Below, in pieces: positions 1 through 11,243 of a DNA stretch of 11,243 bases. Origin of the DNA: a virus; the IMG/VR virus record IMGVR_UViG_3300045988_173323; one strand, 5' to 3'. The position numbers and the translations under genes are program-made. Each line of letters begins with the position of its first letter. Position 1 is the first letter of the stretch. Under the pieces are notes generated by a model. It did no database searches and was not told where the DNA came from. It worked only from the letters and a program-made list of their open reading frames with translations.

Positions 1-255
1 AATTTCAGTATATTCAGGTGGAATAGATGGATAAAAGAACTCTTCAATTTGCTGAATCTCTTTTATTGTAATGCCTGGTTCAAAATCGCCAGACATAACA
101 ACAGCCGCCAATGTCTGAGCATCTGTAATTTCAGTGTGATTATACCACCTTTCCGCTCTTGTTTTTATAGTTGCTGTAGATTCTATAATACCTTCTGTCT
201 CAAAATAATCTGTAACCATTTTTACCGCGATTTCAATTAAATTTGTATTCATCAT
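1..255 (-). CDS. Hypothetical small protein, paralog of 648..944. N-terminus at 255; the C-terminal end runs off the window edge.
   Basis: My own minus-strand translation from ATG (revcomp of cat 253-255) gives MMNTNLIEIAVKMVTDYFETEGI...RWYNHTEITDAQTLAAVVMSGDFEPGITIKEIQQIEEFFYPSIPPEYTEI. It aligns along its length with the 648..944 product (WYNxTEITDAxTLAAV, SGDF.PGITIKEI.QI.EFF). RBS AAGAAAGAGGTA precedes it. The ORF is still open at position 1. Confidence 0.65.
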   Translation of the reverse strand, partial: MMNTNLIEIAVKMVTDYFETEGIIESTATIKTRAERWYNHTEITDAQTLAAVVMSGDFEPGITIKEIQQIEEFFYPSIPPEYTEI

Positions 256-377: not shown

Positions 378-626
378 TTAAAAGAAATCATCTTCATCTT
401 CATCTATTGCTTTTCCATAGCTATCATCTACTTCTAAAGCGTGCTTCATTTCATAAGCCATGAAAAGACCTACTATGAAGCTAACTATTATTATAGATAT
501 AACTGATGCTACCCAAAGCGATAAACCAAAAGCACAACTTATAATAAGTCCAAGACAATAAATCCCTCCAAGGTACAACATAATTGTTCCCAATATGTAA
601 GCAATCTCCATTAAAAAGAAAAACAT
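378..626 (-). CDS. Small hydrophobic (about 2-TM) membrane protein with an acidic C-terminal tail ending ...DEDEDDFF.
   Basis: 82-aa ORF. RBS AAGGAGaaaattaaaATG. Two long hydrophobic stretches (ILGTIMLYLGGIYCLGLIISCAFGLSLWVASVISIIIVSFIVGLF). It sits immediately downstream of, and is co-oriented with, 648..944. Confidence 0.7.
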   Translation of the reverse strand: MFFFLMEIAYILGTIMLYLGGIYCLGLIISCAFGLSLWVASVISIIIVSFIVGLFMAYEMKHALEVDDSYGKAIDEDEDDFF

Positions 627-647: not shown

Positions 648-944
648 TTATTTTATTTCCTCCATCATCATATCTCCGTCATAAAGGATATATTCTGGCG
701 GAGTATGTGGAAAGAAAAATTCTTTAATTTGTTCAATCTCTTTTATTGTAATACCCGGCTTAAAATCTCCTGAAAGTGTAACTGCCGCCAGTGTTTCAGC
801 GTCAGTAATCTCAGTGTAATTATACCAGTTTTCTGCTTTTGCTTTAAAATTTGCTTTTAAATCTAAAGTTAGCGGGAAACCCTCTAATTTAAAAAAAGTT
901 TCAATTTTTTTCATTGTAGCTTCGATCAGTTTTGTGTTTGTCAT
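648..944 (-). CDS. Hypothetical small protein (about 98 aa), paralog of 1..255.
   Basis: Track ORF 648..950. I place the start at the second ATG (944, MTNTKL...) because GAGGT lies 7 nt upstream; the first ATG is only 2 nt from the SD. The product is paralogous to the 1..255 product. Confidence 0.75.
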   Translation of the reverse strand: MTNTKLIEATMKKIETFFKLEGFPLTLDLKANFKAKAENWYNYTEITDAETLAAVTLSGDFKPGITIKEIEQIKEFFFPHTPPEYILYDGDMMMEEIK

Positions 945-972
945 ATGCATTACCTCTTTCTTTTGATATGTT

Positions 973-981
973 TATTATATC
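973..981 (-). promoter_or_regulatory. Extended -10 promoter (TGaTATAAT) plus conserved leader for 648..944.
   Basis: Minus strand reads tTGATATAATaaacatatcaaaagaaagaggtaATGcatATG. Confidence 0.5.
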
Positions 982-1033
982 ATAAATTTTAAAAATAATA
1001 AAGTATATTTCTTTTATTAAGATAAAAAAAATT

Positions 1034-2924: not shown

Positions 2925-2953
2925 TTGAAAAAGTATAAAAAATATGTTATAAT
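2925..2953 (+). promoter_or_regulatory. Sigma-A-type promoter (TTGAAA, 17 bp, TATAAT) for the plus-strand operon 2988..4311.
   Basis: TTGAAA at 2925-2930 and TATAAT at 2948-2953 with an exact 17-bp spacer. It is back-to-back with the divergent minus promoter. Confidence 0.6.
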
Positions 2954-2987
2954 ATTTAATATAAACAAGAGAAAAGAGGACACGGGA

Positions 2988-3164
2988 TTGACAAGAGAAG
3001 AATTAAGTGCGGAATTGGGTATAAGTGAGAATAGAATATTACGTCACTGGCGGGAAGTGTGTAATAGCTATGAGCGGATTGGGATTAAGTTGATTAAAAG
3101 AGGGAAGGGAAAAAACGCGGAGTATGGTATTTTAAAAAAAGACGAGACTGTAGCAAGATTTTAG
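2988..3164 (+). CDS. Small helix-turn-helix DNA-binding protein (about 59 aa) with a probable TTG start. Candidate regulator of the divergent operon.
   Basis: The track ORF begins at TTG 2925, which is itself the -35 of the promoter. In frame, TTG 2988 is preceded by AAAGAGGA at 7-nt spacing. The product MTREELSAELGISENRILRHWRE... has an HTH-like segment. Confidence 0.55.
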   Translation: MTREELSAELGISENRILRHWREVCNSYERIGIKLIKRGKGKNAEYGILKKDETVARF

Positions 3165-3174
3165 AGGAGAATAT

Positions 3175-3444
3175 ATGATAACGGTTGAGAATATTACAAA
3201 TGGAACTGTAAATACATATAGCAATTTTGGTTGCAATCACATAAATATAGAACAAAATAAAAAAGAAGGTTGGGGAATATGTAAATATCTCGTTTCTGGA
3301 GAATTGTGTTTGTGCGGCAAGGAGAAGATTTTAATGAAAGATATTGGTAATAATTGTACTAGATGTCTTTCATATGAACCAGAACCAGAAGAAGAAGAAG
3401 AGGAAGATTTTGACGCGGATGAAGCTGACTATGAAGATCTTTAA
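3175..3444 (+). CDS. Cys-rich small protein with a highly acidic C-terminal tail.
   Basis: 89 aa. RBS GGAGaatatATG. Six Cys (C20, C36, C45, C47, C61, C64 in GCNH...C...CLC...CTRC). Tail EPEPEEEEEEDFDADEADYEDL. Confidence 0.7.
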   Translation: MITVENITNGTVNTYSNFGCNHINIEQNKKEGWGICKYLVSGELCLCGKEKILMKDIGNNCTRCLSYEPEPEEEEEEDFDADEADYEDL

Positions 3445-3595
3445 AGTGAGAATTGCCGCGTTATAAAAAAAATAGAGGATTTTTTTTGGAGAGAATTTTA
3501 AGATAAGAGGATAATATGACGAGAAAAGTTTAGCTGTTTTGTTAAAAGACGAATTAAAAAGCTCTAATCGTTAAGAAAAAATTTAACAAAAGGTG

Positions 3596-3649
3596 TTGAA
3601 AAAGTGTACAAACCAATGATTTGTTGAAATTTTTAAGCAAATGTTGAAA
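3596..3649 (+). promoter_or_regulatory. Three direct TGTTGAAA repeats upstream of gene 3694..4311. Candidate operator or promoter-element array.
   Basis: TTGAAA at 3596-3601, 3624-3629 and 3644-3649, in contexts gtgTTGAAAaag, ttgTTGAAAttt and atgTTGAAAata. No well-spaced -10 partner is found, so a regulatory-site role is preferred over a plain promoter. Confidence 0.35.
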
Positions 3650-3693
3650 ATATTTTAAGTATAAATTTTATGTTTAAATATAAGGAGGGAAAT

Positions 3694-4311
3694 ATGGAAA
3701 TTCAAAAAAATTCAAGGCAAATACCTAGTAATAAAATTTATACTGCTAACAAGAAGTATTCAGATATTCTATATGGATATTTACAACATAATTCTCTTTT
3801 AGACAAAGAGTGCGGAATTAGGTATATACTTAAAAAAGATATTAGCTTCGTAAAAATTGCTAATGAATTAAAGATGCATAGACAAACAGTTTCAAATAAA
3901 TTTAAAGTTTTGATAGAACAAAATTTGATTAGATACAATGAAGAATTAAAAAGATATGAATTAGTTACTATTGATAAAACATTAGCAACTTTATTGCCAG
4001 ATGAAACAGTTAGGATTTGTTATAACACTTTGCAAGATAGATGTTTAAGTATATTGGCTTATTTATTAAAAACTTATATTCAACATAATGAATCTTCTTG
4101 TCAAATAAATTTAGATGTTATAAAAGAATATGTTGGAATTTGTGTTTCAAATAGAGGGTGTAATAATCAGGTTATAAAGGATAGTCTTTTAATATTGCAA
4201 AAGTTAGGTTTTATTCAGTACCATACAGAAAGAAAATTAGATGAGGAAACAGGTGGTATAAGAACTATTTATATTTTAGATAAAGTGTATAATTTTGTTA
4301 CTTTTGATTAA
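3694..4311 (+). CDS. HTH-containing DNA-binding protein (205 aa). Function is undetermined: regulator, or possibly a replication/initiator-type protein.
   Basis: Start moved to ATG 3694 (TAAGGAGGgaaatATG). Track start 3670 has no SD. HTH-like segment: IANELKMHRQTVSNKFKVLIEQNLI. Confidence 0.8.
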   Translation: MEIQKNSRQIPSNKIYTANKKYSDILYGYLQHNSLLDKECGIRYILKKDISFVKIANELKMHRQTVSNKFKVLIEQNLIRYNEELKRYELVTIDKTLATLLPDETVRICYNTLQDRCLSILAYLLKTYIQHNESSCQINLDVIKEYVGICVSNRGCNNQVIKDSLLILQKLGFIQYHTERKLDEETGGIRTIYILDKVYNFVTFD

Positions 4312-4341
4312 AAGATATAGTAAATAAAATACTAAGTAAAA

Positions 4342-4498
4342 TTGCAAAATGTCGAAAAAGTGTAACACAATATAATAGTAGAAGTAATTTCATTACTTCG
4401 TATTCAAGCACTTCGTGCTTTCATACTCGTAATGAAATTACTTCTTAGCCGCCGATAATTTTGCAAAATGTCGAAAAAGTGTAACACAATATAATAGT
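4342..4498. repeat. 38-bp exact direct repeat (4342-4379 and 4461-4498) flanking a 66-bp inverted-repeat element (4380-4445).
   Basis: DR is ttgcaaaatgtcgaaaaagtgtaacacaatataatagt. Each copy carries TGTCGAA at 4350-4356 / 4469-4475 and a TATAAT. The element between them has 17-bp perfect outer arms (agaagtaatttcattac / gtaatgaaattacttct) and an inner gcac-ttc-gtgc hairpin. Confidence 0.8.
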
Positions 4499-4570
4499 GG
4501 TATTAAAATTATACCAGAAATATTATATTATATATTATACATAACTATTATATAATAATAATAATAATAT

Positions 4571-4607
4571 AGGTAATGTATCATACCGAAGGTATGATAC
4601 ATTACCT
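4571..4607. repeat. Perfect palindrome or hairpin (17-bp stem, 3-nt loop) preceded by an (ATA)n run.
   Basis: aggtaatgtatcatacc-gaa-ggtatgatacattacct. No flanking T-run on either strand, so not a canonical terminator. Confidence 0.75.
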
Positions 4608-4619
4608 TAGTGTAAATTA

Positions 4620-5400
4620 AAATGAAGAGTTTTATGCGGGGTGGGGTATTTAGTAGTTGAATCCGCTTTGTTTTAGAGGGACTCTTGTTTAATTTTAAAA
4701 TGTCAAGGAACGTTTTAAAAAATGATTTGAAAATTTTAAGGTTTAAGTAAATTAGGAAAGTTTTTCGGAAGGCATGAGAAAAAGTAAGAAAAGAAGTATG
4801 GTATATTTAGAGAATGGCAAAGAATATTACTGAATAATAACAAAGAGTTAGAGAGTTTTGTTAAAAACGAGTTATGGTTTTTTGGTTAGAAAAGTGTGGA
4901 AGAGGGTATTTAAATTATAAGAGAAGTATGGGAGTGCGGAATTGAATTTAATTAAAGTGCTTCCGCATTTAAAAAGCAAGGTTAAATAAAAATTGCGGGT
5001 TACAGAATTGCTTAAATAAAATTATTAAAATTTTGCGTGAGGAGTTTGATTTTGGAGAGAATTAAGGGTAGCTTTAATAAAATATAAAGATTGGATTAAA
5101 GGTGCGTAAGGTTAAGATAATAAAATATTTTAGAATTAGAGGGAATTGAGGATAGGTTAGCAAAAATAATAAGACTGAGCAAAGAGAATTTAATGTTTGG
5201 GTTAAGAGAAAGTATAAGTTAGATTAAGAGAGAAGAAGGTTGAAGTATATAAAATAATAAGCGGAAGTGAGGATTTTGAGATTGGGTTAAGAGAGGAGTG
5301 AGATTAGAGTGAGAGAGCGTAGAATTGGAGTGTAGAGAGGATGAGAGTGAGGCGTGAGTGGAGAAAGGATAGAGCGAGGCTGAAAAAATGCGAGAAAAAG
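4620..5400 (+). other. About 780-bp strand-asymmetric non-coding tract. The + strand is purine-rich and nearly C-free (roughly 35 C, about 4-5%).
   Basis: I counted C per 60-nt line; nearly every line has 1-4, and 4921-4980 has 6. No ORF of credible composition exists on either strand. GAG/GTGAG-rich degenerate repeats occur, e.g. gggttaagaga twice and GAGGAnTTTGAnnTTGG twice. It lies between convergent genes. Confidence 0.7.
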
Positions 5401-5403
5401 GTG

Positions 5404-5441
5404 AAAAAAATTGTGAGAGTGAAGTGCTCAGCCTCACTCTC
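5404..5441 (-). terminator. Rho-independent terminator for gene 5463..5858.
   Basis: Stem gagagtga (5415-5422) pairs with tcactctc (5434-5441). On the minus strand it is followed by T7 (plus aaaaaaa 5404-5410). It lies 22 bp past stop 5463. Confidence 0.65.
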
Positions 5442-6175: not shown

Positions 6176-6241
6176 GTAGGTCGGATCCGAGTCCTTTGAA
6201 CTCGGACCGCTGATTATATCACAGCCGCCGCGTTTTGTCAA
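6176..6241 (-). promoter_or_regulatory. Consensus promoter (TTGACA, 17 bp, TGaTATAAT) whose transcript starts directly with an AGCGG-plus-hairpin element.
   Basis: -35 is plus 6236-6241 and -10 is plus 6213-6218, with an exact 17-bp spacer. Downstream on the minus strand: cagcggtccgagttcaaaggactcggatccgacc (stem ccgagt/actcgg). It reads toward 5463..5858, about 350 nt away. Confidence 0.55.
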
Positions 6242-6293
6242 TAGGCAAATTATATAAATTTTTCATTATTTTTTTAGTAATATTGCACAAAAA

Positions 6294-6523: not shown

Positions 6524-6919
6524 TTACTCCTCTACAGCTTCCTCTTCCTCTTTTGCAAGAGAGAAATAAGGAACTCTTTTTTCAACTGTTCTAACTACCT
6601 CTCCAGATTCGATAAGCTGTTTAAGAAGAGCCGATAATTTCTGAGAAGAAAGTTTACTCATTTCAGAGTTTTCCTTAATCATGGTTGAAACTGTAACAGG
6701 TTTATCAAATAACTCCAAAGCTACAAGAATAAGTTTTTTGACTTCCTCATTTTCTTTCTGGTTTTTGGTTTTTTTACCGCTGGAAGATTTTTTATTCAAC
6801 AGCTCGATTTCATGTCTGAGAAAGTTAAGTGCTTCTTCTTTTGGTTCAAAGCTACTTTCTTCCAGAAAAGCACTGATAGTTTCAAACCAATCTTTTTTTG
6901 TCATTTTGTCTTTCATCAT
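6524..6919 (-). CDS. Small acidic-tailed protein with a conserved C-terminal winged-helix-like domain (family A, copy 1), about 131 aa.
   Basis: Start set at ATG 6919 (GAGGTaatgaatATG, 7-nt spacing). It is paralogous to 9103..9510, with a near-identical C-terminal half PVTVSTMIKENSEMSKLSSQKLSALLKQLIESGEVVRTVEKRVPYFSLAKEEEE. Confidence 0.8.
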   Translation of the reverse strand: MMKDKMTKKDWFETISAFLEESSFEPKEEALNFLRHEIELLNKKSSSGKKTKNQKENEEVKKLILVALELFDKPVTVSTMIKENSEMSKLSSQKLSALLKQLIESGEVVRTVEKRVPYFSLAKEEEEAVEE

Positions 6920-6952
6920 ATTCATTACCTCTTTCTTTCTTTTGATATATTT

Positions 6953-6981
6953 ATTATAGCATACTTTTTTGTTTTTGTCAA
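6953..6981 (-). promoter_or_regulatory. Consensus promoter (TTGACA, 17 bp, TATAAT) plus conserved leader. Part of a roughly 62-bp near-identical repeat copied at 7208-7270.
   Basis: -10 is plus 6953-6958 and -35 is plus 6976-6981. The leader aaatatatcaaaagaaagaaagaggta runs into the ATG. Confidence 0.65.
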
Positions 6982-7012
6982 TTACTTTTTTTATTTTTTT
7001 CTTTTCTGGTGC

Positions 7013-7201
7013 TTATCTAATGTAAGCACCAGCAATAGACTTAACAGAGCCATCAGCATTGAAAAAGATAACATTATTCTGGATAACGTTGATACCTTTA
7101 TTCTTTGCAAAATTTCTGAACACAAAGTCTGTATTCCAGAGTTTGATAAAATCAGCTTTTCTCATGCTTGCAAAACCTTTTGTGTAATTCATTGTTCTCA
7201 T
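7013..7201 (-). CDS. Hypothetical small protein (about 62 aa).
   Basis: Start ATG 7201 (GAGGTattgtctATG). The track's TTG start at 7207 is 6 nt upstream. It has its own consensus promoter. Confidence 0.65.
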   Translation of the reverse strand: MRTMNYTKGFASMRKADFIKLWNTDFVFRNFAKNKGINVIQNNVIFFNADGSVKSIAGAYIR

Positions 7202-7234
7202 AGACAATACCTCTTTCTTTCTTTTGATATATTT

Positions 7235-7263
7235 ATTATAGCATACTTTTTTGTTTTTGTCAA
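7235..7263 (-). promoter_or_regulatory. Consensus promoter (TTGACA, 17 bp, TATAAT). Second copy of the promoter-leader cassette.
   Basis: Sequence 7208-7270 is nearly identical to 6926-6988. -10 is plus 7235-7240 and -35 is plus 7258-7263. Confidence 0.65.
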
Positions 7264-7278
7264 TTACTTTTTTATTTT

Positions 7279-7482
7279 TTAATTTTTTCCAAGATACTCT
7301 TCAAGATGCTCGTTTAAGAAATTTATAGTTTCATCCAACCCGCAAATCTCACAAAAGTTTTTAAAAGCTTTTTCAAGTTCTTTTTTTCTAGTTGCTTTTA
7401 TTAATTTAATACAACTCTCATAATCTTCTTTTGTAATAACAAAAGGAACGCATCCATCTTTTTTCAATGTAAATTTTTCCAT
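7279..7482 (-). CDS. Hypothetical small protein (67 aa) with several Cys (C11, C24, C44, C47).
   Basis: RBS AGAGAGGcaaataaaaATG. It has its own promoter. Confidence 0.7.
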   Translation of the reverse strand: MEKFTLKKDGCVPFVITKEDYESCIKLIKATRKKELEKAFKNFCEICGLDETINFLNEHLEEYLGKN

Positions 7483-7514
7483 TTTTATTTGCCTCTCTTT
7501 CTTTTGATATATTT

Positions 7515-7543
7515 ATTGTATCACATCTTTTGACTGCTGTCAA
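7515..7543 (-). promoter_or_regulatory. Consensus promoter (TTGACA, 17 bp, TGaTACAAT).
   Basis: -10 is plus 7515-7520 (revcomp TACAAT) and -35 is plus 7538-7543. It shares the leader aaatatatcaaaagaaagagagg. Confidence 0.6.
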
Positions 7544-7549
7544 GCACTT

Positions 7550-7969
7550 TTATAAAATATTTTCAGCTTTTAAGTAATCTCTATAGGAAATATAGCCATT
7601 TTCCGCGAGCCACCTATCACAAGCGTTGGATTCTCTCCAATAATACTCCTCCCAGACTGGAAAAGTTATTATTATTTTATCACTTTCTTTTTTAAGAATA
7701 GTAATAATTGTATTAATACAATGTCCTTTACCCTCAAGCCATTCCTTGAAAGTAACCTTTTCTGCCGCTTCAAACGAAATTGTAAATGAGAAATTAAGCT
7801 CTTTTCCTTTTTCTGTGAGAAAATCAGTTAAATAATTTACAAACTCTTCTTCCTCATAGTTACTTTCGTCCAGCAGTGGAGTTTCTAAAAAATGCTCATT
7901 TGCTGGATTATAAAATCCATTTCTTTTGATGTCTTCAATTAACATTTTAACAACTTTTTCAATTTTCAT
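7550..7969 (-). CDS. Hypothetical protein (139 aa).
   Basis: RBS GAAGGAAtgggataaaATG. Ordinary composition. It has its own promoter. Confidence 0.75.
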   Translation of the reverse strand: MKIEKVVKMLIEDIKRNGFYNPANEHFLETPLLDESNYEEEEFVNYLTDFLTEKGKELNFSFTISFEAAEKVTFKEWLEGKGHCINTIITILKKESDKIIITFPVWEEYYWRESNACDRWLAENGYISYRDYLKAENIL

Positions 7970-8004
7970 TTTATCCCATTCCTTCTTTTGATTTTTGTAA
8001 TATC

Positions 8005-8033
8005 ATTATATCAAATTTAATTTGGTTTGTCAA
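8005..8033 (-). promoter_or_regulatory. Consensus promoter (TTGACA, 17 bp, TGaTATAAT).
   Basis: -10 is plus 8005-8010 and -35 is plus 8028-8033. Confidence 0.6.
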
Positions 8034-8140
8034 GTGTTTTTTATTTTTTTATAAGGTTTTCGCATAACACTTGACCAAAAGCATTTCCTTATTATTTTCT
8101 ATTGACATAATCTCAAATTGATTTGATTTTGTCAAGTCTT

Positions 8141-8464
8141 TTAAAAATAACTTCCTAAGCTTGTAATAAAAGTGCTTTCTACAATAAGTTTATTATTTAT
8201 ATAATAAGTAAAAGCAATAGAAGTTACATAAACAGCCAGACCTAAGAGTGAACTTTCAAAAGCACATTCCTGAGAGATATTAAATTTATAGTTTTTATGT
8301 TTAGGATTTTCTTTTAAGAAATTGAAAACAGTCTCGCCTAAACAATCGCCTTTATTATTCATTTCCATGTAATTATGTCTTTCAGAGTTCCAAAAACCGT
8401 GACTGTCTAAAAAATCATAAAGGTCTGCCATTGTCTCCTCAAACATTGTTAAATCGTTTGCCAT
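8141..8464 (-). CDS. Hypothetical small protein (107 aa), family B copy 1 (GFW-S motif).
   Basis: RBS GAAAGAGGTatttaatATG. N-terminal DLYDFLDSHGFWNSE aligns with NRLEDDLIKAGFWDSD of 9629..9922. Confidence 0.75.
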   Translation of the reverse strand: MANDLTMFEETMADLYDFLDSHGFWNSERHNYMEMNNKGDCLGETVFNFLKENPKHKNYKFNISQECAFESSLLGLAVYVTSIAFTYYINNKLIVESTFITSLGSYF

Positions 8465-8499
8465 ATTAAATACCTCTTTCTTATTTATTTTATGTATAC

Positions 8500-8528
8500 A
8501 TTATATCAAAAGAAAAAATAAAAGTCAA
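8500..8528 (-). promoter_or_regulatory. Consensus promoter (TTGACT, 17 bp, TGaTATAAT).
   Basis: -10 is plus 8500-8505 and -35 is plus 8523-8528. Confidence 0.6.
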
Positions 8529-8559
8529 TGGCATTTTGCACAAAGTATAATAAAATATT

Positions 8560-8760
8560 TTGTCTATTTTGACTATTGACAAGTTTAGCATTGTGCATAA
8601 CAGAGAAAATTGGCGAATTTTGATATAAATTTTTGTTCATTTTACCTATTGACAAAGAATTTTGTGCAAAACAGAGAATTTTGGGATAAAAAATTTTTTA
8701 TTTTTGTGCATTTTTTCTCTTGACAAAATTGTTAGCGTGTGATATAATGGATATTTCGGT
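8560..8760. repeat. Three tandem degenerate units of about 60-70 bp. Each has a TTGACA followed by a TTGTGCA(a/t)AACAGAGAA-type box. Only the last unit retains a consensus -10.
   Basis: ctaTTGACAagtttagcattgtgcataacagagaaaattgg; cctaTTGACAaagaattttgtgcaaaacagagaattttgg; ctcTTGACAaaattgttagcgtgtgaTATAATgg. Confidence 0.6.
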
Positions 8761-8813
8761 CGCCTTGATCCAAGGCGACCCGCTATTATATCACACTTTC
8801 GGGTGCTTGTCAA
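8720..8813. promoter_or_regulatory. Face-to-face (convergent) consensus promoters on opposite strands, flanking a nested palindrome.
   Basis: Plus: TTGACA 8720-8725, 17 bp, TATAAT 8743-8748. Minus: -35 at plus 8808-8813, -10 at plus 8785-8790, 17-bp spacer. Between them: gtgtgatataat..ggtcgcc-ttgatccaa-ggcgacc..attatatcacac. Confidence 0.6.
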
Positions 8814-9024
8814 TAGGCAAAATAAACAAAATTAAAAAATTTTTGAGCATTATCTTTGTTACATTTTCACAAAATTATAGACTGGAACTCTTTGTGCAAC
8901 AATACCAAAATTATAAAAATTTTTTAGCTATTTTTTGTAATTTATGTACATTGACTTTTTTGTTCTCTGGTATTTTTGAATAAAAAACATCCCTCCAGCA
9001 GCGGATTTTTTGTGCAAAAAGTAG

Positions 9025-9072
9025 AAAAAAAAATGCACAAAAAGGAGGACGGATTTTGTGCAATCCGCCCTC
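9025..9072 (-). terminator. Rho-independent terminator for 9103..9510.
   Basis: Stem gaggacggat (9045-9054) pairs with atccgccctc (9063-9072). It is perfect with one G-U wobble in minus-strand RNA. The minus-strand downstream is cuuuuugugcauuuuuuuuu. Confidence 0.6.
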
Positions 9073-9102
9073 TTGACAAGGTTTATAAGTTACTTTTTAG
9101 TT

Positions 9103-9510
9103 TTACTCTTCTTCCTCAACTTCTTCTTCTTTTGCAAGAGAAAAGTAAGGAACTCTTTTTTCAACTGTCCTGACCACTTTGCCTGCCTCAATCATTTTTT
9201 TCAACAGTGCAGATAACTTCTGAGAAGAAAGCTTACTCATTTCGGCGTTCTCTTTAATCATTGTAGTTACCGTGACAGGTTTACCAAACAGCTCTAAGGC
9301 AATTCCAATAAGTTCCATAAGCTCCTCATTTTCTTTAATGTGAGCTGTTTTCTTTTTGCCTGGTGCTGAAGATTTCTTATTTAACAGTTCAATCTCGTGA
9401 TTGATGAAGTCAAGTGTTTCTATTTTTTTGTCAAAGTTTTCGGTTTTTTCTACGATGCCAACCAGCAGTTTGAAAAAGTCTTTTTTTGTCATTTTTGTTG
9501 TGTTTGTCAT
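9103..9510 (-). CDS. Family A copy 2: small acidic-tailed protein with a winged-helix-like C-terminal domain (135 aa).
   Basis: RBS AAGAGGAatttaattATG. The C-terminal half is nearly identical to the 6524..6919 product. Tail EEEVEEEE. Confidence 0.8.
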   Translation of the reverse strand: MTNTTKMTKKDFFKLLVGIVEKTENFDKKIETLDFINHEIELLNKKSSAPGKKKTAHIKENEELMELIGIALELFGKPVTVTTMIKENAEMSKLSSQKLSALLKKMIEAGKVVRTVEKRVPYFSLAKEEEVEEEE

Positions 9511-9555
9511 AATTAAATTCCTCTTTTCTTTCTTTAAAAATTTTTTTGGTGGCTT

Positions 9556-9651
9556 GCGGTCGGTGGTCGATTTTGCCGACCAACCAAACCGCTGAAATTA
9601 TTTACTACTTTGTTACAATACTATTGTACTACTTCTTTTTACTTTTGTCAA
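9556..9651 (-). promoter_or_regulatory. Consensus promoter (TTGACA, 17 bp, TACAAT) with a structured 5' leader (CAGCGG plus hairpin) for 9103..9510.
   Basis: -35 is plus 9646-9651 and -10 is plus 9623-9628. Leader on the minus strand: attgtaacaa...cagcggtttggttggtcggcaaaatcgaccaccgaccgc. The promoter overlaps the 3' end of 9629..9922. Confidence 0.55.
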
Positions 9652-9922
9652 GCACTTTTTTTATTTTTTTTTGTTCCCACAAAACTACTTGAGTCATAGG
9701 CTTGTTATTTTCAATCCAAGCAAGGGAAAAAGCTACGATGTTAAAAGGATGCTCAAGAAATTCGATATAATCAATATCAAATTCAAAATCCCATTCTTTT
9801 TGATAAGATTCTAACAAGCTATTGATAGCGTTATAGCTATAAGTATAACTATAACTATCACTGTCCCAAAAACCTGCTTTTATTAAGTCATCTTCTAAAC
9901 GATTTAAAATTTTTTCTAACAT
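9629..9922 (-). CDS. Family B copy 2 (GFWDS motif), about 97 aa.
   Basis: Start at ATG 9922 (GAAGGTGAtaataATG). The track start 9937 lacks an SD. No separate promoter is seen, so it is probably co-transcribed with 10000..10374. Confidence 0.7.
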   Translation of the reverse strand: MLEKILNRLEDDLIKAGFWDSDSYSYTYSYNAINSLLESYQKEWDFEFDIDYIEFLEHPFNIVAFSLAWIENNKPMTQVVLWEQKKIKKVLDKSKKK

Positions 9923-9950
9923 TATTATCACCTTCATTCAATGTTATTTC

Positions 9951-9999: not shown

Positions 10000-10374
10000 C
10001 TATTTCTTTTTTGGCGGTCGATGCTTAATCAAAGAAATTGAATACTCGGACTCACCGATTTTGAAAGTAATTTCTTTTTGTGGATTTGCGATTGCTACAC
10101 TTTCAAAGTCCATTTCTTCATTTTCTTTTAAGTAGCTTGCTAAAATCTCAATAATTTTAACTTTTTCTGCATCAAGTTTGATTTCACGCTTTTTCGTGCT
10201 TTTTTTCTCTGGTGTACTCTGGACATAATTCTTAATGCCTTTAGCCTTAATCTCCATTTCTGCCATTTCAAGAGCTTCCTCTTTTGTTACGGGTTCTCCA
10301 TCCGCTTCAAATTCTTTCATAAGCTTAATAGCAAGCTTTTCGATTGCATCTGCGGTCACTGTTGTTTTAGCCAT
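10000..10374 (-). CDS. Hypothetical Lys/Glu-rich protein (124 aa).
   Basis: RBS aaaaAGGAtgtgatgtaacATG. It has its own consensus promoter. Confidence 0.75.
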   Translation of the reverse strand: MAKTTVTADAIEKLAIKLMKEFEADGEPVTKEEALEMAEMEIKAKGIKNYVQSTPEKKSTKKREIKLDAEKVKIIEILASYLKENEEMDFESVAIANPQKEITFKIGESEYSISLIKHRPPKKK

Positions 10375-10422
10375 GTTACATCACATCCTTTTTAAAATTT
10401 ACTATTAACTTGTTACAATGGT

Positions 10423-10451
10423 ATTATATCGCACCTTAGCTTAAAAGTCAA
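10423..10451 (-). promoter_or_regulatory. Consensus promoter (TTGACT, 17 bp, TATAAT). Part of a 52-bp exact repeat that also occurs at 11191-11243.
   Basis: -10 is plus 10423-10428 and -35 is plus 10446-10451. The -35 overlaps the TGA stop of the upstream gene. Leader contains ATTGTAACAA. Confidence 0.65.
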
Positions 10452-11158
10452 GCATTTTCGTGTAATTCTTTTCTTTTTTTCTGCGGCAGTCTCCAACATG
10501 ACGGCTTAATACTTCTATCCATTTTTTTATGCTGGTCAAAACATTTTTTCATAATTTCAATTTCAATTTTTACATCTTCTAAACCTGTATGAGATTCTAC
10601 AAAATCAATATTCTTTTTAATATATTTATAGCATACCTCAGCGTTAGTTAAAAGATTGCCTTTTTCAGACTCAAATCCGTTTTTCTCAGCAAATTTGATA
10701 TAGGTGTTTGTACTTAAAATCATCTGGCAAGCCATATTCCAAATACAAAAATATTCTGTGCCATAAGGGAAAAACCAGCGAATAAAACTTTTGCTATGGT
10801 ATCTAATAGCATTGTTTAATGCTTTTCTATCAAAATTCATATTGTAAGCACCAACTTTTTTCACATTATATTCTTTCATGTCTGCAAACATCTGTTTTCT
10901 AATATTGAAGATGCTTTTCATGGTTCTTTTTCCGCTTTTTAAATCATCCCAATATTTTGGGATTTTTTTAGCGTAGTAGGCACTATTCATAGCTTCTTTC
11001 AAGTCAATAAATGTCTCAGCGACTACAAAGCTTCTTTCGGTGACAATGTTACCGTGTCTATCTGCAATAGCATAACCAATATCATAAGGGATTGGCTCAT
11101 TTACACTATTCGCAGTTTCTGTATCCAATACCATGAAAAACTCTTTTCTTCTACTCAT
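10448..11158 (-). CDS. DEDDh-family 3'-5' exonuclease (DnaQ/RNase T-like), about 236 aa.
   Basis: Exo I MVLDTETA. Exo II YNMNFDRKAL. Exo III ESHTGLEDV. Start at ATG 11158 (GAGGAaatcaaaaATG); the track TTG start at 11173 is unlikely. Confidence 0.8.
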   Translation of the reverse strand: MSRRKEFFMVLDTETANSVNEPIPYDIGYAIADRHGNIVTERSFVVAETFIDLKEAMNSAYYAKKIPKYWDDLKSGKRTMKSIFNIRKQMFADMKEYNVKKVGAYNMNFDRKALNNAIRYHSKSFIRWFFPYGTEYFCIWNMACQMILSTNTYIKFAEKNGFESEKGNLLTNAEVCYKYIKKNIDFVESHTGLEDVKIEIEIMKKCFDQHKKMDRSIKPSCWRLPQKKRKELHENA

Positions 11159-11213
11159 TTTTGATTTCCTCAACTTTCATTTATTTTTTTTACTATTAAC
11201 TTGTTACAATGGT

Positions 11214-11242
11214 ATTATATCGCACCTTAGCTTAAAAGTCAA
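11214..11242 (-). promoter_or_regulatory. Consensus promoter (TTGACT, 17 bp, TATAAT) for the exonuclease gene. Second copy of the 52-bp repeat.
   Basis: Identical to 10400-10452. -10 is plus 11214-11219 and -35 is plus 11237-11242. Confidence 0.65.
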
Positions 11243-11243
11243 G

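Follow-up and report, generated by a model that had tools for sequence, protein, structure and literature searches.

Predicted winged-helix proteins and their paralogous neighbours in the early-gene region of an uncultured gut phage

Large virulent phages of Firmicutes carry host-takeover modules of the SPO1 type, in which dense small genes are served by strong sigma-A/sigma-70 promoters and strong Shine-Dalgarno sequences, and paralogous small early genes are normal in large phages. We analysed 11,243 nucleotides (nt) of viral DNA, the IMG/VR record IMGVR_UViG_3300045988_173323 (the window, meaning this whole stretch; coordinates refer to it unless a locus is named). We concentrate on a pair of its small genes, A1 and A2 of family A, which encode predicted winged-helix proteins, and on two further paralogous families, B and C. 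Like a SPO1-type module, the window holds a cluster of small genes with strong host-type promoters: 12 sites lie within one mismatch of TTGACA-17-TATAAT against 0.30 expected, a number reached in 0 of 200 shuffles. It also has repeated modules of ribosome-binding sites (RBS). It differs in that none of its small genes matches an annotated PHROG.

The nearest described proteins are small winged helix-turn-helix (wHTH) regulators of the MarR, PadR, ArsR and BlaI types, the closest by profile being Sulfolobus ST1889 (PDB 2d1h). Family A shares with them the succession of helix, helix, recognition helix and beta-wing, the basic charge of recognition helix and wing, and extra helices that possibly dimerise. 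It differs by its hairpin, Lys-rich linker and acidic tail, and by being phage-encoded, multi-copy and linked to a second gene family, p124. Rok, Lsr2 and H-NS combine an oligomerisation domain, a basic linker and a DNA-binding domain, which in Rok is a winged helix. Family A has the same three-part layout as these silencers, an analogy of layout and not a membership. Taken with multi-copy expression from strong promoters, this layout suggests that the family A protein may be abundant. Gp5.7, likened here by description, is also a small phage winged-helix-like protein from a genome with strong host-type early promoters. Contrary to Gp5.7, family A proteins are about twice as large, have an extra N-terminal domain, occur in several copies and are themselves under host-type promoters. 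A functional analogy, in which family A would shut off or tune early promoters, is plausible.

We read the window as an early region with three sets of paralogues, where family A would comprise old, maintained early nucleic-acid-binding proteins, family B accessory proteins and family C a duplicated unit; for this account as a whole we see the chances as evenly balanced. The earlier note on this DNA, which had described three families of diverged small paralogues, holds and goes slightly less far than the data: there is a third family B member in the window, and a second gene shares in the family C duplication.

Family A

A1 (9103..9510, minus strand) encodes 135 residues, laid out as a helical hairpin, a Lys-rich linker, a winged helix and an acidic tail, EEEVEEEE. 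A2 (6524..6919, minus strand) encodes 131 residues from a probable start at 6919; this start agrees better with RBS spacing and with the genes called on the source contig than does the first ATG of the open reading frame (ORF), at 6925. The two are a paralogous pair, as had been proposed: BLASTP aligns them with 84 of 122 residues identical (69%, E 3e-55). Counted along it, about 84% of the C-terminal 62 residues are identical, as against about 53% of those preceding them. The likeness spans the full length and is therefore not a low-complexity effect of the acidic tail, an explanation that the earlier note had kept open.

Among 5.8 billion proteins, 421 match family A. They split into A1-type and A2-type orthologue groups, which co-occur on the same contigs of about 135-140 kb, the A2 group being about 67% identical to A1. 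When 1.84 billion representatives were searched with a profile, 3,937 clusters matched at E<=1e-3 and 1,945 at E<=1e-10; the majority of the best 150 clusters listed have lengths of 112-140 residues. The family consensus reads KMTKKD.F...F..HE.ELL.KK...TKTQKENE...PVT.TE......SNQK.SALLK.L...G.VVKT..KKKSYFS. Across about 100 copies, from 47 loci of very divergent phages, there is almost no change in the recognition helix, (S/T)NQK(L/I/V)SALLK, or in the basic wing. Because the recognition helix is nearly invariant across such divergent genomes, the target of family A would be common to all these phages.

Curated models hardly reach the family. HTH_24 is the best of them for the window proteins, at 12.7 bits against a cut-off of 21.9, and no Pfam or NCBIfam cut-off was reached; a separate NCBIfam scan of family A returned none. 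Members give weak sub-threshold matches scattered over many wHTH Pfam families, and the WH_Rok model is touched by only 2 of 63 members (E ~9e-4). PHROG 19455, of unknown function, is matched by 38 of the 63 (best E 1.5e-8). A1 does not match it at E 1e-3, and phrog_19455 is not listed for A1 or A2 when both are scanned at E<=0.01. With A1 and another member as queries, tblastn found only one unannotated fecal contig. Altogether, family A is a very large, widespread and uncurated phage protein family without a Pfam model.

The AlphaFold2 model of A1, built on a 63-sequence alignment, has a predicted local distance difference test score (pLDDT) of 87.5. It places a helical hairpin (residues 9-22 and 29-47) before a flexible Lys-rich linker, the winged helix and a disordered acidic tail. 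The winged helix consists of helices 56-75, 81-87 and 96-109 and strands 112-117 and 120-125, at pLDDT ~94-96, in the wHTH topology H1-(b1)-H2-H3-b2-wing-b3. Nearly all of the top 50 Foldseek matches in the PDB are wHTH proteins, and the few larger proteins match via such a domain; the best values are a probability of up to 1.0, a target template modelling score (TM-score) of up to 0.86 and a root-mean-square deviation of 1.6 Å. The neighbours include MarR, ArsR, BlaI, PadR and Z-alpha, as well as TubR-type centromere binders. In a profile search of PDB sequences, 2d1h, a wHTH regulator, was found at E 0.014. Among viral models, the proteins that match best over the full length come from metagenomic phages and are uncharacterised.

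With pLDDT ~94 over residues 60-125 and only wHTH structures matched, the proposal of a winged helix for the C-terminal half of family A holds in the model. The accompanying idea, a binding module joined to a variable specificity region, fits the predicted winged helix and fails for a freely variable N-terminus: KMTKKD.F and F..HE.ELL.KK in the N-terminal half are conserved family-wide, and only helix 1 and the hairpin loop vary. Z-alpha domains are marked by an Asn and a Tyr in helix 3 and a Trp in the wing. Inspection rejected family A as a Z-alpha domain, since its helix 3 (S-N-Q-K-L-S-A-L-L) has no Tyr four residues after the Asn and its wing has no Trp.

Fold, charge, multi-copy expression from strong promoters and an invariant surface suggest that family A proteins may be abundant early nucleic-acid binders, with a regulatory or architectural role. 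They would probably dimerise via the hairpin and probably act with p124. A1 and A2 would present a common binding surface, and their differences in helix 1, hairpin loop and linker may set dimer or partner specificity. Alternatively, the winged helix could bind protein, docking on a conserved host protein such as RNA polymerase or a replication factor, with the acidic tail as a DNA mimic. The near-invariance of helix 3 and wing in divergent phages would suit a conserved host protein no less than DNA. In addition, the whole proteins are acidic or neutral (isoelectric point, pI, 5.5-6.8), and no covarying DNA motif was found. Charge within the protein is distributed otherwise: recognition helix and wing carry +6, with a KKK/KR wing motif, the linker +3 and the tail -7. 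Moreover, the top structural neighbours all bind nucleic acid and most family A members have no acidic tail, and we consider docking on a host protein unlikely.

Between A1 and A2, synonymous sites are saturated (proportion of synonymous differences, pS, 0.73). The ratio of nonsynonymous to synonymous substitution rates (dN/dS, omega) comes to 0.08 for the whole protein, reaching 0.21 in the N-terminal half and falling to 0.025 in the winged helix. Comparison with close relatives gives omega values of 0.13-0.18 for A1, 0.11-0.16 for A2 and 0.05 for p124. Saturated synonymous sites together with low omega thus mark A1 and A2 as an old pair kept by selection, and their near-identical C-terminal halves reflect constraint, not recency. 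Judged from these substitutions, the duplication of family A is ancient and under purifying selection. Recent gene conversion was rejected as the source of the conserved C-terminal halves in the window, third-codon-position identity being only 0.3-0.65.

Recombination has left its mark elsewhere. In another strain, protein P0057, on a 1.7-kb contig, has a first part of 70 residues that is A1-type, and its last 65 are 100% identical to the A2-type P0068; this chimera implies occasional recombination between A paralogues. In some other strains the acidic tail is longer by 30-40 residues.

The earlier note had read families A, B and C all as anti-defence or host-takeover effectors diversifying by duplication, with A as a constant module bearing variable specificity. 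Small early genes with individual strong promoters do resemble known host-takeover regions, the greatest divergence between A1 and A2 is in helix 1 and in the loop of the hairpin, and acidic tails are of highly variable length among strains. Family B is acidic, lineage-restricted and variably present, and B2 has the highest omega, 0.32-0.47. However, the elevated dN/dS of arms-race genes is not seen, no omega reaching 0.5 in any family measured. For family A in particular, the arms-race signature does not survive the values of 0.08 for the pair and 0.11-0.18 for orthologues, with pS at 0.73. Its duplication is ancient, both copies are retained clade-wide on the same contigs, and the multi-copy family spans 3,937 clusters with a near-invariant recognition helix and is accompanied by a conserved partner gene, p124. 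A PADLOC scan of known defence-related models gave no match other than a weak generic winged-helix one for family A. We therefore doubt that all three families are such effectors and keep to the reading of family A as old, maintained early proteins that would bind nucleic acid.

Partner gene, promoters and noncoding elements

The gene p124 (10000..10374, minus strand, 124 residues) belongs to a second uncharacterised family, almost always adjacent to an A gene in related phages. Family A is encoded by 24 viral contigs and 19 contigs of metagenome-assembled genomes (MAGs); linkage was counted over the first 28 loci, namely the four encoding contigs and the viral contigs. These hold 73 A genes and 43 p124 genes, with 2-5 A copies in every locus. 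In nearly all of its 43 occurrences p124 lies within a few hundred nt of an A gene, usually directly downstream. The p124 proteins, themselves multi-copy, have an acidic helical N-terminal part, a basic linker and an alpha+beta C-terminal part ending in HRKxKK. They were rejected as distant family A homologues (hhalign probability 0.4%), and p131, encoded downstream of A2, was rejected as a diverged p124 (no similarity, z = -0.3). In several related phages (loci L008-L028), two A/p124 cassettes converge on a region of 2-3 kb.

The minus strand of the window is a series of small genes, mostly with their own near-consensus sigma-70 promoter and a strong RBS. Near-perfect promoters lie upstream of A1, A2, B2, B3, p124, an exonuclease gene and two other small genes. 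On the minus strand, that of A2 (6953..6981) is a perfect TTGACA-17-TGnTATAAT and that of B3 (8005..8033) is also perfect; those of A1 (9623..9651, overlapping the 3' end of B1) and B2 (8500..8528, with a TG extension) each match at 11 of 12 positions. The C genes use extended -10 promoters, and B1 has no strong promoter of its own. The separate promoters claimed for the three families are thus found for A1, A2, B2, B3 and C and fail for B1.

Expression signals appear to have been copied as cassettes. The A2 module of promoter, 5' untranslated region (5'UTR) and RBS (6916-7005) is 91% identical over 90 nt to that at 7198-7287, before an unrelated gene. A further copy of the module stands before an unrelated gene at 7478-7567, and an exact 55-nt repeat of a promoter/5'UTR/RBS module, at 10398-10452 and 11189-11243, serves unrelated genes.

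At 8720..8813 (no strand assigned), 290 nt downstream of A1, two perfect TTGACA-17-TATAAT promoters are directed towards one another, with a GC-rich hairpin of 8-10 bp between them. Their -10 boxes are about 37 nt apart, and the hairpin is followed by a GAATTTTCC-like tail. As in the switch of coliphages 186 and P2, the convergent promoters are near enough for mutual interference. Contrary to that switch, both are perfect consensus at this spacing, a GC hairpin lies between them, there are several copies per genome, and the phage seems to be a virulent one. Further elements occur in locus L001 (6886-6981 and 7040-7143) and in loci L012, L030, L031, L035, L040, L041 and L045. The related loci hold 26 distinct face-to-face pairs, whose -10 spacing is 35-38 nt in 21, with 37 nt the commonest. 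Their central parts have a GC content of 53-76%, against 33% for the genomes. The stems vary in sequence, and pairing, hexamers and spacing are kept. The face-to-face element is a conserved noncoding element of the phage group; its tie to A/p124 cassettes is statistical only.

The hairpin has no Rfam match. We rejected the stretch at about 8757-8779 as an RNA anti-CRISPR (a solitary CRISPR repeat), as no metagenome contig had two of the 21-nt cores 30-60 nt apart, in an exact-match test that is weak.

A 640-nt noncoding stretch after A1 and a 600-nt one after A2 each contain a perfect orphan promoter, then a hairpin. The promoter at 6213-6241 (minus strand) is perfect, without a following ORF, and its predicted transcript begins with the hairpin GGTCCGAGTTCAAAGGACTCGGATCC. 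This element, with about 100 nt downstream, is conserved in the close relatives L002, L005 and L006 and may specify a small RNA. The motif TGCACAA, often as TTTTGCACAAAA, occurs 9 times in the window against 1.5 expected. Eight copies lie in 8537-9062, a 526-nt noncoding stretch after A1, and one at 6284. The motif is found in only some related phages.

It is possible to see A, p124 and the nearby noncoding islands, with their face-to-face promoters, hairpins and TGCACAA arrays, as repeated origin- or partition-like modules whose sites are bound by A. Promoter-hairpin elements are nearer to A/p124 genes than random positions are (median 430 against 1,308 nt, P ~0.005), and in six cases the end of a cassette lies about 100 nt ahead of such an element. 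All 20 TGCACAA copies of the 20-kb source locus are intergenic and clustered in three noncoding islands, and TubR-type centromere binders are among the fold matches of family A. Yet the proximity test treats closely related loci as independent, no NTPase (nucleoside triphosphatase) or replication-initiator gene is linked to the cassettes, and several copies per genome would be unusual for an origin or a centromere. Many relatives without the TGCACAA motif have the same recognition helix. We regard such modules as highly improbable.

Another possibility joins the same parts differently. A, p124 and the face-to-face promoter with its GC-hairpin might make up a cassette, present in several copies and restricted to this large uncultured gut-phage group, a previously undescribed way to control or exploit host RNA polymerase on the phage genome, with abundant A, through its invariant recognition helix, acting on the invariant consensus promoters or on hairpins. 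We consider this a long shot, and retain for A the less specific reading of early nucleic-acid-binding proteins.

Families B and C

Family B comprises B1 (9629..9937, 102 residues, its orthologues beginning at MLEKIL, position 9922), the acidic B2 (8141..8464, 107 residues) and B3 (7550..7969, 139 residues), which has the motif variant GFYNP and was absent from the earlier list. All genes of families A, B and C are on the minus strand. B1 and B2 both have the GFW[ND]S motif; BLASTP pairs them at only E 0.16, and hhalign gives 60% probability over 29 columns. Smith-Waterman z-scores over 500 shuffles are 6.2 for B1-B2, 5.5 for B2-B3 and 4.0 for B1-B3, and all control pairs stay below 2 but two (2.7 and 3.0). 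Among 3,240 ORFs, the hidden Markov model (HMM) of each B gene places the other two first or close to first in its non-self matches. The best for the B2 HMM is B1, then B3; with the B1 HMM, one unrelated ORF outranks B2 and B3. A profile of B1 and B2 orthologues, aligned without B3, detects B3 at E 1.5e-5 over residues 3-71, with the next unrelated ORF at 0.12. Shuffle z-scores, HMM ranks and this leave-one-out profile together establish three members of family B in the window. The family, proposed from the shared motif, is therefore real though weak, and extends to B3.

Database searches with the B genes found only close orthologues (at least 73% identity) and no cross-matches. The proteins have a pI of 4.7-4.95, and omega against close relatives is 0.12-0.14 for B1 and 0.32-0.47 for B2. 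Among close relatives, L005-L007 lack B3, L007 lacks B2 as well, and L006 and L007 have B1 at a different location. The AlphaFold2 model from a joint alignment (pLDDT 79, predicted TM-score 0.68) shows a helix, short strands, a helix and three long strands. Family B would consist of small alpha+beta accessory early proteins, probably acting on host components. As they are acidic, occur only in the closest relatives and come and go between strains, they are better candidates for host interaction than A. An anti-defence or host-takeover role for family B would be reasonable and plausible, judged from these sequence features.

Family C is alignable along its length, as had been noted: the two copies are identical at 50 of 85 residues (59%, E 6e-37), with an omega of 0.22. 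Copy 1 (648..944) encodes 98 residues from its probable start, in an ORF that reaches 950. Copy 2 (1..255) is represented by its first 85 codons, as the gene continues beyond the window; at full length it encodes 100 residues (locus L001, 19256-19558). On the contig, the copies belong to a tandem duplication of about 690 nt, with about 70% nucleotide identity that includes the promoter and the noncoding 3' flank. Each unit contains an extended -10 promoter, an RBS, a C gene and a gene for a membrane protein of 82 or 86 residues. The promoter and RBS module of copy 1 lies at 954..1009 (minus strand) and its duplicate at 269-324 serves copy 2. The 82-residue membrane protein is encoded at 378..626 (minus strand), and its 86-residue paralogue lies just outside the window. 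Family C and its membrane partner thus form a duplicated two-gene unit, whose role is probably associated with the envelope.

Several points weigh against the account given at the outset. The structural matches of the A1 model are generic, with Foldseek E values of 0.03-0.2. We infer DNA binding by family A from fold and charge alone, and winged helices can also bind protein or RNA. As an operator for family A, the TGCACAA arrays were rejected: motif and recognition helix do not vary together, and as relatives without TGCACAA carry the same helix, covariation gives the operator idea no support. The acidic tail is clade-specific and missing from most members, and therefore not essential to family A function. 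The family B model comes from a shallow alignment, the other four AlphaFold2 models having pLDDT 62-67, and its fold search gave no convincing match, with weak NTF2-like ones at a TM-score <0.4. Finally, Pfam, PHROGs and NCBIfam scans of A, B, C, p124 and p131 returned nothing informative, and revealed no homologue of known function for families A, B and C.

Genomic setting and meaning

The window (29% G+C) is 100% identical to part of the ENA gut-metagenome contig ERZ27311611:k119_110808 (135,403 bp), and other gut contigs of about 82-134 kb are 97-99% identical to it. A search for near-identical DNA in the collection of deposited and cultured phages found no match. On the source contig, the window sits inside a run of about 20 kb of small genes, mostly on one strand, almost none with a Pfam match; in the window, nearly all convincing genes are on the minus strand, except for a plus-strand block at 2925-4311. 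The phage is an uncultured one of low GC from the gut, about 135 kb in size, and appears virulent; the window is a portion of its early-gene arm. No transfer RNAs or Rfam families were found in the window.

At 10448-11173, a gene for a DnaQ-like exonuclease shares 45% identity with genes of Enterococcus phages of about 140 kb, and 30% with its counterpart in phAss-1, of a gut phage group described previously (PMC10607447). Genome matches gave no host assignment: they led only to gut MAGs with taxonomies at odds with one another, where phage contigs had probably been mis-binned.

Positions 1089-2757 hold, in the early-strand orientation, an AAA+ ATPase gene (370 residues; the contig record lists Pfam AAA and nSTAND3 for it) and, ahead of it as transcription runs, a SprT-like metallopeptidase gene (168 residues) in the same orientation. 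The only plus-strand block, 2925-4311, has genes for a helix-turn-helix-like protein of 79 residues, a Cys-rich acidic one of 89 and one of 213. In L002 and L003, contigs otherwise 97-99% identical, about 3558-4370 is swapped for a gene with a weak GIY-YIG match and a gene for 119 residues. This region looks like a mobile or variable insertion site.

After the terminator of a gene for 131 residues, a noncoding stretch of 800 nt (4620-5420) has 4.4% C against 27% G on the plus strand; from this composition, it may be R-loop-prone or origin-like. The same noncoding region contains a 51-nt direct repeat (4337-4387 and 4456-4506, 90% identical, two copies 119 nt apart) and, beside it, a 17-bp perfect hairpin (4571-4607). 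Stop-codon recoding is known in the distantly related phAss-1 group (PMC10607447). We rejected it as the cause of the long noncoding stretches, including 4620-5420, as reading TAG or TGA as sense opened no new ORFs.

Paralogy itself is ordinary for large phages, and it is the A and p124 families, with the promoter-hairpin elements, that deserve follow-up. Large uncultured phages have early regions that mostly lack annotation; here, one ORFan pair is placed in a very large uncurated winged-helix family, present in several copies and with a fixed gene partner across a clade of gut phages of 70-180 kb. Conserved core early genes (A and p124) are set apart from the strain-variable family B, which is the better place to look for host-interaction or anti-defence functions. 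Family A becomes a defined target for structural and DNA-binding work and for the building of a family model.

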